Below, piece after piece: positions 15,001 to 21,000 of a stretch of DNA of 49,338 nt (within the stretch, counting starts at the first letter, position 1; each line of letters begins with the position of its first letter). The position numbers are program-made. The stretch is from the IMG/VR virus record IMGVR_UViG_2721755725_000012; one strand, 5' to 3'. The stretch is from a virus (Duplodnaviria; Heunggongvirae; Uroviricota; Caudoviricetes).

Positions 15001-18000
15001 CGGATAAGGTGCGCCCCAGACGGAGCGCAAGTCGCATCAGAAAGCGAATTTCCGGGCGGGCTACTTTTTTCTGGCCGACTCTGCATCAGCGATCAGTTCC
15101 AGTGCCTGACGCAGCAACCGGGCATGTACCGGACCATAGACGGCCAGCACCGGCTCACGGTCGTCCGGAGTGAACACCCGTTGCAGGTCAGTATCACACA
15201 GGACATCGCAGAACAGCGTCACATCCGCTTCCAGGTTACGGCGGGTTTTCGCCACCACCGACAGGGTATCGTCATCCTCTCCATCACCATTGAGCACTTC
15301 CTGCCACAGATACCAGGCCTCTGCCGAAGGCTCCCGCAGCACCACGCTGACATTACCCCATTCCGGCACCTTCACCGTTTTATGACGGAACCCCGACAGT
15401 CTGGCCAGCGCCAGTGTTTTCAGATCTTTTGCCATAAGCCTTATCCGCCCGCACCATTAACCGTTACTGTACACGCATCAGAGGTAATGCTCTGCGGCTG
15501 TTCTGCAGAATCCGTTACCTCGCAGGTATAAGCCCCCTTATCACCTGACTGCGTATTGGCTTTACTGAAAGTGTCAGTAGTCTGTCCCTCTACCGGCTGA
15601 CCATCCTTCTTCCAGGCGTGTTTATAAGGCGGCGTTCCCCGTTGACACTGACTGACATTGTCAGCAGCGCACCGGTATTCACGGCAAGTGTCTTCTCCGG
15701 ATTTTTCACAAACGCCAGCGGTACCACATAGGACACCGGTTTACCCTTCAGGCGAAGTGAAAACGTTGCAGCCACCACGCCGTTGGTACCGGATGACCAG
15801 GTGTGCTGACGCACTTCCGCCAGGAACTTAAAGCCCTTACCGGACGGAAACTGCACCTTAAACGCATACACCGTGTCATTGTCATAGGCATCACGCAGGG
15901 CGTTCTGGGCCTGATTCAGATAAAAATTACCCGACATGGAAATCTCGGACGACGCCCCCAGACCGTTGATGTTCTCCTGCTCTGTGGAGCAGAGCGTGGT
16001 CACATCAATATCCTGTTTCTGACCGGCGGTGAACTGGACTTCCTTGATGGTGCAGTCCAGGCGCAGATATTCCGCCTTATCCATAGTTTCAGCAGTCGCC
16101 GGGGCAGATGAAATCATCACCTGCGTCAGCTGTGAGCGTTCATACAAAGCAGACATTCTGCCTCCTGATAATAAAAAACCCGCACGCGGCGGGGTATGGG
16201 TTTTGTAGAAAAAAAGAAAAAGTCACACCGTGACCTGAAACTCCAGGGTTGCACGGTAACAGCGGTTTTCCGGAATATAGTCCTGCATTTCACTGACGGA
16301 TCCCGGGGCCAGCAGCATTATGGCTTCACGGGCGTCCTGACGTATCTGACGCGCCTGCGTCACAGTCCCGGCATAAACGTCTATCTGCACCGACACTGAG
16401 GACTCCGCCTGCCCGCCCATCACGTCCGCAGACACCGATGAAATCAGGCTGAAAACCACCCACGGAAGCGCCACCGACGGCCTGCCATCCAGCAGGGGGA
16501 CCACATACGGGTACACCTGCCCGCCGGCAAGATGCGCCAGATGAGGATACAAATCCGCCTCCGTCATCGTCTCAGTACCTCATCAATGGCCCGGTTCATC
16601 CGAGCAATCGCCACCTGCGCTGCCTGTTCACTGCGCACATCAAATGCCGGGCGCACAAACGGGTGCGGTGGCATATTCACGGTCCCCATTTCCACAAACC
16701 GCCAGTAGAAAGCATTGCGCGGGTTATCCGCCTTCATGGTGTTATCGCTGTTACCGGTGTCCGGATTAACACCACGGATATGGACACCGGATTCCATCCC
16801 GCCATCGCGGGAGCGCCGGGAAAGGACCACCACATTGCGGCGCAGTTTTCCCCTGCGTACCGGTGCCCGTGACACCACTTCTTCTTTCAGCACATTCGCA
16901 CCCGCACGGGTTGCCTCACGCAGCACCCGGTTATTTTCTGCACCACTCAGAAGCTGCAAATCGCGGCTGATGTCCTCCAGCCCCGAAAAATCCAGCAGGG
17001 TTTCGATCATTTTTCACCTCCCAGCCGACAGAGAATTTCCAGACGTCCGCCGGTCGCATCCGGCACGGGCAGCCCGACAACGTTCAGGATCCGGTCACGC
17101 CATGGACCACTCAGCACATGAAGTCGTGACGCTGCCGTGATTTCCCGGCCGGACTGACCGCGCACCCAGATGCGGATTTCCGCCTGCGCCATTTCCGCAC
17201 CGGACTGCATCCGCTCCCGGCTGCTCCTGCCACGGATATCCGCATGAATTTTCCCGCATGACACCCATTCTTCCGTCATTTCTCCGGCAGCATTACGGGT
17301 TAACACCGGGTTCAGAACACTTATCATCTGTGTCAGACGACCTGCAGATATTGCCATTCCCCCTCCTCATAACACCGTCGGACAACGCAAATCGTAAATC
17401 AGCACGGAAACAGAAAACGGCAGCTCCCCCTGAATCAGTTCTTCCCGCTCCGCAAGATCCGGATTCCGGTACAGCATCCCGGTCAGTCGCATGGCAGCCC
17501 CCTTCATCCGGGTTAATGCCTCGCCCGGGATCAGTTCACCGTCCTCACGAATCACCTTATCCCGGCTGCCCTGAATGTAGGCCAGCAGCACGGCGGTAGC
17601 CTGACGAACCTTGTCCATCAGCATGTCATCATCCGCGTCATGGTCGACACGCAGATGTGCCTTGATCTCTTCCAGTGTCAGTAATGCCGTCATTTTCCGC
17701 CTCCTGCATCCCGTCCACGTTTGGCAGCCAGGGTCCAGCCTGATGAATGAGCTTCTCCGGGTTTATCACCGGTCATACTGTTGCAGTGCCACAGCGAGCC
17801 CCCCCACGTCACCGTATCACCGGGGTGGTAGGTTTCACCGGCTCTGAACACACCGCGGTAGAGCATCACCGGCAGGGAAAATGTTTTTTCCGTACGCTGG
17901 CCACTGCTCTGCCGGACCACCACAGTGAACGACCGTTCGCCGGTCATGCTGACGTCAATATCGGCCACCCCGTCAACCAGGCATTCCCATCCCCGCATCC

Positions 18001-21000
18001 CGTGCGTTTTTTCATACGCCCGCCAGAGTCCGCCCAGGTGTGTGGCATACGTGCCCCGGGGAAAGGATTTTTGATCGTCAATGGCGGGGATTATTTCCAG
18101 TGCCGTGGCATCACGCCCGTCCTGCGGAGCCGGCAGGGCTCTCACCGCATCCAGAACAGCCTTCTGCAGAACATCGGGATCATAGTCACGACCATCACGC
18201 GGAACAGGAATATGGCTTACCGCCTCTTTCACCATCTGTTCAAGCATCGGACGCACATCATCGGGGGTAATACTTTTGCCGTCCGCCGGTACCGGAATAT
18301 TCGCGACCGCATCATTCACCGCCTTCTGCAGTACTTCCGGATCGTAATCACGACCGTCACGCGGAACAGGGATATGGCTTACCGCCTCTTTCACCATCTG
18401 CTCAAGCATCGGACGCACATCATCGGGGGTAATACTTTTGCCGTCCGCCGGTACCGGAATATTCGCAACCGCATCATTCACCGCCTGCTTCAGTACTTCC
18501 GGATCATAATCACGACCGTCACGCGGAGCAGGGATATGGCTTACAGCCTCTTTCACCATCTGCTCAAGCATCGGACGCACATCATCGGGGGTGATACTTT
18601 TGCCGTCCGCCGGTACCGGAATATTCGCAACCGCATCATTCACCGCCTGCTTCAGTACTTCCGGATCATAATCACGACCGTCACGCGGAGCAGGGATATG
18701 GCTTACAGCCTCTTTCACCATCTGCTCAAGCATCGGACGCACATCATCGGGGGTGATACTTTTGCCGTCCGCCGGTACCGGAATATTCGCAACCGCATCA
18801 TTCACCGCCTGCTGCAGTACATCCGGATCATAATCACGACCATCACGCGGTACCGGAATGGTCCCCACAGCGTCATCCACCATCGCCTGCAGAACCGGAT
18901 GTACCTCATCCACCGTCACATGCTTCTGTAATACCGCCGACAGGGAAGCCAGTTTCTCTTCAAACGCTTGTGCCTGCGAGGCCATCTTCCCCTCAAATGT
19001 GCGCTGTAAATCCGCCAGCACCGTGGAGAATTCTTCACCCAGCGCACGGATAATGGACAGTTCCCGTTCCGTCATTTTCGCAGTATCCCCCTGAACATCG
19101 CCTTCACCGCATCACGCTCTGTTTCGCTTATGGCCTTATTACCGTCAGACGCGCCCTCCTGGCGTGTGCCTGACGACGTTTTCCCGGAAGACGCGAACGG
19201 ATCCTCACGGGCATCACGACGGGACAGCGCCTCCAGACTGTAGTTCTGCTGCTGAAGATACAGTGCATCACCGCCGGCAAGGGGCGGCAGGTTCTCACGT
19301 TTACGGGCCTCATTGGGCGTGAGAAGCGTATTTTTCACCGATTCACCCAGCGTTTTCATGCGACGTTCGCTGTCCATTCTCAGCAGCGTGGTGACGTCAA
19401 ACTCCGTGCTCTCGTTTTCCCCTGTTTCCAGCGCCTCATCCAGTAACAGTTCAATGGACTCAATCAGCGTCTGCAGGCACTGGGAATAATACTGCTGCTC
19501 CAGCGCCTCCACGTTGTCACTGGAAGGCGGTTGTCCCACGCCAATCTTGTAGGCCGGGACACGGAACACCGAACAGACAATTTCAGCGGTCATCTTCAGT
19601 TGTTCCACCGTCTGCGCATCCACAGGTGAAAACGTCGTGGGGTTGTATTTTGCCCCGTTGCTCAGAATGGCCGTTTTCCCCGCATTTTCGCCTGTATACC
19701 CGCTGTCCCAGTTGCTCTTCAGTTTTTTCGCATTTTCTTCCGTTATACTGCCGGGGATCTCAATCACCCCGGACGGCCTGCCGCCATTTCTGAAAAAAGA
19801 CGTCGAATTTTCCTGAATATGATGCCCCTGCGTGGCCGCCAGCCCGGCGGCATACACCGGCGGCAGCCCCACAAGCGGATGAAAAAAACAGTTAAACCGG
19901 TCGTGGATCACTTCCCGGGCAGGCACCGTCACCGCCTCCGTGATCCCGCAGTTCCGGTCCGGCGTGATGCGGTAGAACACCTCGCCGTCATCCGCCACCA
20001 GAGGTTCAACCCGGCTCCAGTCCAGAATACGCAGTTCTTTGATCTGCCCCCGGGCATTACGGATTTTCAGCACCACCGTATTGCCATGACGCAGTTTGGC
20101 GTTCAGCCACAGTTCAAAAAACTGGATGCGGTTCTGCTGGGCGTTGGGACGACGACAGAGGCGGGCAATATCCCCCCGGCGCGTTTCCCTGCGTATCCCA
20201 TGCGCATCCGTCTGCATAAGACGCAGCCGCATTTTGGCGATATCCTGGGATATCAGCGAAATACATGCAAACACCGCATGAAAGGAGAGGACGGCTTCAG
20301 GATCGGCTTTCACGCCCTGCTGCCAGGCGCCGGAAAAGGGCTCAGCCACCGCCTGAAACAGGCTGGTCCAGCCCGCCTCTCTTACGTCACGTCCTGATTT
20401 CTGGTTTTTTCGGGTTCGCCGTAAAAGGTTCCACATTCGCCATGCTCCGCATCACGTTTCTTTTTCTGACCTGCCGGACGTCGCACCGTGATGTACTCCG
20501 CCTTCCCCAGGCGAACCAGCACCTCCGCACACGGCTGTGCCACATCACGGATATCCCCGGCCCGGGCATCATGCGTGCCCTGCAGATATCGGATCTTTGC
20601 CATAACCTGTTACGGGAGGCGCACGCCTCCCGTCCTCCTTATCAGACTCAGCCGCCGGACGCACTGCCGTAGTTCACTCCGGTGATCACCGCCACCGCCG
20701 CAGTACGGCGACGACGCCAGTTGATCCAGCGCTCCGCACGGATGGCCACGCTGCCTGTCTGGAACATGGAAACCAGCTCCACCGGGGACGGCGTGGTACT
20801 GTCGCCGGTCGGTTCAGACTGCATCTCCAGTGACGCTTCACGGGACATATCCACCGCCACACCGCCGTCATCAGCCAGATAAATATCCGGCGCATTCACC
20901 AGCACCAGCTGGTCACCCACGTACTGGGAGACAATCACCGGCAGCCCCTGGAAGGAGCCACCCAGCAGGGTCATGTCCGGGTATTCCTTCTGACCCAGCG

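Follow-up and report, generated by a model that had tools for sequence, protein, structure and literature searches.

Copy-number variation of an in-frame 162-bp repeat in a portal-adjacent gene of Escherichia coli lambdoid prophages, and its possible role as the shaft of a portal-vertex fiber

What kind of protein is encoded by a gene that lies between the portal and head-tail connector genes of a tailed phage and carries a string of nearly identical 162-bp repeats, and how stable is the number of those repeats? The question is raised by IMG/VR virus record IMGVR_UViG_2721755725_000012 (Caudoviricetes), a stretch of 49,338 nucleotides that was analyzed as a whole and is referred to here as the window. 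The window represents a lambdoid prophage of E. coli and belongs to the long-tailed type, among which are Shiga toxin (Stx) phages of the Stx1a and Stx2c kinds and "PPompW" phages. The gene, designated X here, is a 461-amino-acid (aa), 1386-bp open reading frame (ORF) at 17690 to 19075. A first-pass annotation of the window had placed this ORF between portal and connector without stating its strand; the ORF is present there, on the minus strand.

Tandem Repeats Finder returned a single array at 18159 to 18850 (period 162, 4.3 copies, 96% matches, 0% indels, score 1237), and no other tandem repeat in the window comes near it in strength. In the register of the gene, there are four full 162-bp units (18212 to 18859), followed by a diverged partial fifth unit. 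The tandem in-frame 54-aa repeat of the first-pass annotation is thereby confirmed. Pairwise identity among the full units is 93.2 to 98.8%, and the longest exact direct repeat in the array is 220 bp. The earlier wording "nearly identical" was therefore apt, whereas "perfect" slightly overstated the case. Each 54-aa unit divides into two sub-units, one of 25 aa and one of 29 aa, and each of these opens with IP(V/A)PxDG(R/K) and runs on into a short helix. The codon differences between units comprise 27 synonymous and 14 nonsynonymous changes.

The copy number of the array had been expected to vary between isolates, and this is what was observed. Matches to the 1386-bp query in phage and E. coli genomes span 1386, 1224, 1062, or 900 bp, that is, steps of 162. 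In a set of 83 loci, mostly from IMG/VR, that was used both for ORF lengths and for the states of a G-run at the portal/X junction (see below), the ORF was 353, 407, 461, 515, or 569 aa long, and three units was the commonest count. Nearly all homologous ORFs are 245 + 54n aa long, with n ranging from 0 to 6 units; the protein database has many 245-aa forms that lack any full unit, and even these minimal homologues keep the partial fifth unit. Arrays of 2 to 6 units are present in many independent records. Alleles of 407, 461, and 569 aa (3, 4, and 6 units) share 1,850 bp of flanking sequence with 0 mismatches. Because of this, we conclude that unit number shifts faster than point substitutions build up, always in frame, and a copy number that is fixed within lineages looks excluded.

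Unit number thus differs on otherwise identical sequence while the frame is kept, which is how variable-number tandem-repeat (VNTR) or contingency loci are recognized. The resemblance to bacterial loci of this kind extends to the long near-identical in-frame units, whose number outpaces point substitutions, and to an adjacent homopolymer that toggles. Unlike those loci, X lies in a temperate-phage structural module. The array itself shows ordinary VNTR behavior in a fibrous protein. The features of X and its two neighbors, in the direction of transcription, are as follows.

19072 to 20436, minus strand: HK97-family portal protein, 454 aa (TIGR01537, PF04860)
19087 to 19091, minus strand: G5 homopolymer that precedes the start codon of X by 12 nt (read from the sequence)
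19072 to 19075, minus strand: ATGA overlap of the portal stop with the X start codon (read from the sequence)
17690 to 19075, minus strand: gene X, 461 aa, predicted accessory structural protein (ORF list; without a Phage_portal match in Pfam or NCBIfam)
18923 to 19075, minus strand: N-terminal amphipathic long helix, aa 3 to 51, proposed attachment or oligomerization segment (predicted structure, confidence 71 to 80)
18212 to 18859, minus strand: four full 162-bp/54-aa units, aa 73 to 288, VNTR-like putative shaft (Tandem Repeats Finder, unit register, and predicted structure at low confidence)
18137 to 18211, minus strand: partial fifth unit, aa 289 to 313, consisting of one diverged 25-aa sub-unit that joins the array to the C-terminal domain (register listing)
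17864 to 18136, minus strand: conserved beta-rich domain, aa 314 to 404, with invariant Cys365 in a GWEC motif
17723 to 17863, minus strand: C-terminal module of the predicted CBM5/12 (carbohydrate-binding) type, about aa 405 to 451, with the GDTVTWGGSLWHC motif and invariant Cys431
17690 to 17693, minus strand: ATGA overlap of the X stop with the connector start codon (read from the sequence)
17367 to 17693, minus strand: gp6-like head-tail connector (adaptor) (PF05135, TIGR01560)

Inspection of this region indicates that X, a gene in its own right, is squeezed in between portal and head-tail adaptor and is not itself a portal. The portal domain is complete without X: the portal ORF matches TIGR01537 over positions 2 to 343 of 343 (E = 2.4e-105) and PF04860 over positions 2 to 321 of 321 (E = 5e-81). 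X gave no match to PF04860 or TIGR01537 in Pfam and NCBIfam, and it is continuous with the portal ORF in certain alleles (G6, described below) only. The NCBIfam matches that X did give were far below their cutoffs and were discarded. X matches PHROG 2271, "portal protein," only at profile positions 527 to 859 of 859; these lie past the length of the portal ORF and are consistent with a fused tail. The portal, X, and connector genes form one chain of overlapping starts and stops, and because ATGA overlaps are found at both ends of X, translational coupling is suggested. The order portal then X was seen in nine of nine contexts examined.

Beyond the E. coli lineage with the G-run, the portal, X, and connector or neck genes are separate in every relative examined, except in the lineage of one protein, P0262, in which portal and X are fused. 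Salmonella phage FSL SP-016 has the three genes separate, with an ATGA overlap and without the G-run, and Rhizobium phage RHph_X2_26 has portal and X separated by a 4-nt spacer. The genes are likewise separate in four metagenomic loci, with a TTGA overlap (L083), an 8-nt overlap (L084), a 17-nt spacer (L092), and a 48-nt spacer (L095). The portal ends in AMIRGFLTK* in SP-016 and in AMFRGILRK* in E. coli alleles with G5; because SP-016 matches the split-frame peptide without having a G-run, this peptide is the conserved one. Portal-fused proteins account for 2 of the 150 best family representatives. Taken across these relatives, the comparison identifies the two-gene form as native and, presumably, ancestral. 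Klebsiella homologues are misnamed "gp6-like head-tail connector, partial." X-connector fusions were considered and rejected: the Klebsiella cases are fragments that end at contig edges, the connector gene is separate, and the name is noise.

The junction between portal and X holds a second source of variation. In the window, the portal TGA is at 19074 to 19072 and the X ATG is at 19075 to 19073, in the -1 frame relative to the portal; the portal ends in AVKAMFRGILRK* and is followed by MTERELS, the start of X. A run of five G's (G5) leaves portal and X as separate genes, while six (G6) join them into an in-frame portal-X fusion, and this is the only difference at the junction. The fused homologues are single ORFs of about 780 to 860 aa that read AVKAMFRGDT(E/A)KMTERELS across the join. 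The split form was found in 53 of the 83 loci, the window among them, and the fused form in the other 30. G5 and G6 were both found on identical 1,110-bp backgrounds, and the most diverged junction variants are split only. The inducible Stx1 phage BP-4795 has G5 and the split form, with a 1386-bp/461-aa ORF59 annotated "hypothetical," and the Stx2c phage 2851 has G6 and a fused 859-aa "portal GP3." The G-run was not found in the Salmonella, Rhizobium, or metagenomic relatives.

The G5/G6 run is a second hypervariable site, independent of the array, that turns the ancestral two-gene state into a fusion, although the G5/G6 difference may be either true hypermutation or, in part, sequencing error. 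In addition, the G5 run supplies X with a Shine-Dalgarno-like element, AGGGGG. It is a matter of speculation that fused alleles could still yield free X by internal initiation at the retained ATG with this element. The P0262 fusion (1,237 aa, on 4 contigs) belongs to a lineage other than that of the E. coli G6 alleles and has a long run of Pro-rich/helix repeats. The split-frame portal/X junction uses the rare codons AGG and ATA.

The architecture of X was analyzed by AlphaFold2 (AF2) modeling, with confidence expressed as the predicted local distance difference test (pLDDT), and by profile comparison. The N-terminal helix spans aa 3 to 51 in the model, and its start, M-x-ERELSII-x-ALGEE, is conserved in enterobacterial homologues. 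In the repeats, helices of 13 to 17 residues alternate with Pro/Gly/Asp loops of about 12 residues (pLDDT 41 to 68). The beta-rich C-terminal domain reached a pLDDT of about 82 when modeled alone, and no convincing structural match was found for the beta domain at aa 314 to 404. C365 and C431 are invariant among homologues. Against CBM_5_12 (PF02839), the window protein scored 17.9 bits, below the gathering cutoff of 26.2 bits, whereas homologues that are 54 to 68% identical over the C-terminal region scored 29.2 to 30.4 bits, above it. The small beta-sheet fold of chitin-binding domains is present at the X C terminus. In the model, then, the C terminus carries a CBM5/12 (chitin-binding) fold with a borderline sequence score, and the tip is probably glycan binding. 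X is acidic, with an isoelectric point (pI) of 4.9 overall and 4.5 in the repeats.

Comparison with relatives revealed that the middle of the protein is variable in kind as well as in length. One relative, P0240, matches the Pfam collagen family (PF01391) with an E value of 1.8e-10 at the position of the repeats; the window protein contains no G-X-Y run of this type (PF01391). The Rhizobium X has a helix-rich, Ala/Glu-rich stretch of about 290 aa, which reads as a coiled coil, together with short G-X-Y runs. Elsewhere the middle region consists of 25- to 27-aa Pro-rich/helix repeats (Salmonella, Escherichia albertii, and P0262) or of PxDGKD/helix repeats, of which there are up to about 12 in P0380. 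Structural neighbors in BFVD are mostly phage proteins that combine collagen and CBM5/12, some of which are named tail or tail-fiber proteins. A profile search retrieved 8,149 representatives, each standing for a cluster at 50% identity, at E values of ≤1e-3, and 1,040 at ≤1e-30. Most representatives are 240 to 500 aa long, and the conserved domain is always C terminal, with variable repeat stretches before it.

Some further matches were set aside. TetR_C_35, FliG_N, and DUF4244 in the repeat region had no individually significant stretch and reflect composition, namely, repeated amphipathic helices. A profile search of the PDB gave designed helical-repeat proteins, again compositional, and a weak CBM-like match, 7b5h_AE, and shed no light on the shaft. 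Many X homologues carry a precomputed match to the Pfam family PF28083. The first-pass annotation had called the family and role of the protein unknown. The literature searched yielded no account of X, of its 162-bp VNTR, or of the G5/G6 switch and no functional study of the X family; the architecture of the protein is now defined here.

We tentatively propose, at somewhat less than an even chance, that X is an accessory protein of the virion in its own right, present in few copies at the portal vertex and with the repeats as its shaft, for which the likeliest location is outside, as a neck or portal-vertex fiber. Because of the start-stop overlaps, X would be made at roughly the level of the portal. 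Its N-terminal helix would anchor at the portal/adaptor ring, and the repeats would make up an extended shaft of helical segments, probably a trimer, the length of which could be reset by unequal recombination or replication slippage between the 162-bp units. The beta/CBM tip may bind a cell-surface glycan (lipopolysaccharide, capsule, or another polysaccharide) and so aid reversible adsorption. Such a role would resemble those of the neck whiskers, head fibers, and lectin-like decorations of other phages.

The closest parallels lie in two known systems. Like the whiskers of T4 fibritin (wac), X is proposed to be a low-copy fiber at the head-tail junction with an N-terminal attachment segment, and fibritin likewise has a shaft of short helical segments with loops, in which length is set by segment number; in the AF2 monomer of X, helices and loops alternate at the low pLDDT given above. 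Unlike fibritin, X gave no sequence or fold match to it and ends in a beta domain and CBM5/12 instead of a foldon, and the fibritin gene does not lie beside the portal gene; the neck attachment of X is only inferred. The second parallel is with collagen-like fibers and decorations with CBM5/12 tips (SPP1 gp12 is a collagen-like head protein), in which CBM5/12 likewise follows a repetitive shaft, and P0240 has true G-X-Y repeats at that place. The window protein differs in having helix-loop repeats, and neither the place of its gene, with portal and adaptor on either side, nor its link to the portal is that of tail fibers or capsid decorations. X may thus work most like fibritin-type whiskers or collagen/CBM fibers, with a genomic position and portal coupling that are unusual for either.

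Several observations weigh against an external fiber. Virion proteomics or a structure was not found for any member of the X family, so that presence in the virion and place there are inferred. In-frame fusions to the portal C terminus occur in two lineages (E. coli G6, including phage 2851, and P0262). The portal C terminus lies in the crown, inside the capsid, in SPP1, T4, P22, and HK97, and because of this the fusions would favor an internal location or contact with the portal crown. Genes just after the portal, such as those for SPP1 gp7, Mu F, and 80alpha gp44, encode internal head proteins. In addition, the suggestion of a trimer derives from the collagen-bearing relative and not from the window protein, the repeat region was modeled at low confidence, and the window protein itself stays under the Pfam CBM_5_12 threshold.

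These points lead to the strongest competitor, which we consider unlikely but well worth weighing: X may be an internal, portal-tethered head protein, with its N-terminal helix on the crown and about 12 copies per particle, that exits via the tail at infection. In that case the periplasm would be where the thin repeat shaft and the CBM5/12 tip do their work, perhaps by binding peptidoglycan glycan strands. The portal fusions, one of them in the infectious phage 2851, would fit this location, given that portal C termini are internal in solved portals, as would the place of X immediately downstream of the portal gene, with a start-stop ATGA overlap in the window, and the tolerance of wide length variation. 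As with SPP1 gp7, Mu F, and 80alpha gp44, the gene lies just downstream of the portal, the fusions suggest association with the portal, and the copy number is likely low. Unlike these proteins, X has no Phage_Mu_F domain (none in Pfam at E ≤ 1 or in PHROGs) and no similarity to gp7 in the same searches, its acidity makes DNA binding unlikely, and it is fiber-like with a lectin-type tip. Where a collagen-like shaft ends in a CBM5/12 tip, the protein is typically an external phage fiber. Outside E. coli, the fusions are rare, at the 2 in 150 already mentioned, and those in E. coli arise from a hypermutable G-run and may be tolerated accidents. On balance, we rate the external location above the internal one.

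A bolder combination of the two variable sites is rather improbable in our judgment. Junction and array would together act as a contingency system with two knobs, in which the G-run switches X between a free protein and a covalent C-terminal extension borne within the capsid by each of the twelve portal subunits, and the VNTR resets length in 54-aa steps. If true, this would give heritable, rapidly reversible variants of the portal vertex that affect adsorption, DNA retention, or ejection. A variant would make X a new class of internal fiber that is tethered to the portal crown, exits via the tail, and binds cell-wall glycan. Among known systems, Ig-like (immunoglobulin-like) and lectin-like domains are reportedly appended to phage structural proteins, sometimes via frameshifts. 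As in those appendages, a module of the carbohydrate-binding type is set on a core module, and a frame change or homopolymer decides whether the two are joined covalently. In contrast to them, the partner here is the portal, with its internal C terminus, the normal state is two genes, and no programmed-frameshift signal was found.

It is improbable, and more so than this combination, that X is the C-terminal half of a long portal and the window copy a frameshifted pseudogene in a decaying prophage. This is how pipelines read the locus: the Prokaryotic Genome Annotation Pipeline (PGAP) labels the identical locus in NZ_CP029692 "phage portal protein, incomplete" or "frameshifted," a label applied to the split form because fused single-ORF homologues exist, and the "portal protein" of PHROG 2271 covers X. 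One continuous ORF does occur in 30 of the 83 loci and in phage 2851. Furthermore, a table in Asadulghani et al. 2009 (PMC2669165) scores the portal as defective in Sakai prophages Sp6, Sp9, and Sp12, defects that may or may not be this split. Against this, the distant relatives without a G-run all have two genes, and the split-frame portal C terminus and ATGA overlap are kept in Salmonella SP-016. The 454-aa ORF alone fills the portal hidden Markov models, and BP-4795, which is inducible, is split and carries the same 461-aa ORF. Finally, the split form is the majority among the loci and the sole form in the most diverged junction variants.

Slightly less credible again is the notion that X is absent from the mature virion and serves as an assembly factor, a scaffold or chaperone associated with the portal or prohead and lost before maturation. 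The coupling of X to the portal gene and its long N-terminal helix, as in scaffolding proteins, would agree with this; however, a protease is already fused to the capsid protein of this phage, which has a scaffold-like segment as well, and a conserved CBM5/12 tip and collagen-like variants are ill suited to an intracellular chaperone.

We think it very unlikely that ribosomes slip on the G-run (-1 on G5, +1 on G6) to make mostly plain portal and some portal-X, in parallel to T7 capsid 10A/10B or the tail chaperone G/GT. The G5 frame AGG GGG AUA would let the P-site tRNA-Gly re-pair in -1 with the rare AUA in the A site, translation in that frame would give exactly the sequence of the fusion found in nature, and the window carries tRNA-Arg(UCU) and a tRNA with a CAU anticodon. 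However, no stimulatory RNA structure was found at the junction (minimum free energy z-score of 0.12 versus shuffles), and the G-run is absent from the Salmonella, Rhizobium, and metagenomic relatives. Of the parts of a programmed frameshift site, a conserved slippery sequence with a stimulatory element, only the G-run is present, and no support for programmed frameshifting was found. An ATGA overlap with an upstream Shine-Dalgarno-like element is also the ordinary signature of coupled initiation.

Last, that the array is a collapsed or expanded assembly artifact is scarcely credible: exact repeats of 220 bp are longer than short reads, and short-read contigs do break here, but the four-unit gene is identical in the complete chromosome NZ_CP029692, BP-4795 has an ORF of the same 1386-bp/461-aa length, and in hundreds of records every array keeps the reading frame and has its flanks intact. 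The concern about assembly in the first-pass annotation was nevertheless justified in part; while the window array is no artifact, breakage of short-read assemblies in or next to the X gene is real and leaves thousands of "partial" proteins at contig ends. Such truncated entries make up most of the homologues in the protein database (entries P0001 to P0240; see also loci L085 to L087).

X is widely distributed. The gene is 100% identical over 1386 bp in NZ_CP029692 and 94 to 98% identical in many Stx phage records, and it was matched in 1,247 of 5,426 complete E. coli genomes, about a quarter. It is carried, too, by the long-tailed phages of the Stx1a and Stx2c kinds and by some of the Stx2a kind. 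Infectious phages with the gene are BP-4795, 2851, and FSL SP-016 (PMC3728262).

The module that contains X runs in the order TerS, TerL, protease-capsid fusion, small ORF, portal, X, connector, head closure, gp10-like, gp17, and tail genes. The protein before the portal, at 20648 to 22585 on the minus strand, is a 645-aa fusion of prohead protease and major capsid protein (Peptidase_S78 and Phage_capsid, with a weak NF045541 match). This order is unusual compared with that of HK97, and it is kept together with X in the Salmonella, Rhizobium, and metagenomic relatives. In two metagenomic loci (L092, 5294 to 8186, and L084, 6726 to 8933), genes of the sugar-modification type stand directly after X, inside the head-neck module. 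They include an MptE-like/Maf-type gene, a hexapeptide acyltransferase, and methyltransferases, most of the Pfam matches being weak or faint, and they may indicate glycosylation of the virion, possibly of X.

Elsewhere in the window, tRNA-Arg (anticodon tct) and a tRNA with a cat anticodon, called Met by ARAGORN and possibly of the Ile2 type, are encoded on the minus strand at 31580 to 31656 and 31737 to 31812, respectively; they are rare-codon tRNAs of the kind that Stx-type lambdoid phages carry. Iteron-like 15/30-bp tandem repeats of the TCAACAGTTGACGGG type, in about five copies, lie at 41426 to 41524 inside an ORF at 40888 to 41865 (minus strand) and are probably a replication origin within an O-like replication gene. 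A 45-bp tandem repeat (two copies, 80% identity) was found at 1969 to 2059, at the tail-fiber end of the prophage.

These results have consequences for how such prophages are read. X is mislabeled "portal protein" or "frameshifted portal pseudogene" by pipelines, and assessments of prophage integrity may count the split as a defect; the correction of this annotation affects many genomes. Short-read assemblies break inside the X gene because of its 220-bp exact repeats and of prophages present in multiple copies, and the array is a possible typing marker. More broadly, X defines a large, unstudied family of more than 8,000 representatives that are portal adjacent and fiber-like, in which the tip is of the lectin type and the shaft can expand freely, and it could add a new accessory element to the neck or the capsid interior of HK97-type siphophages.

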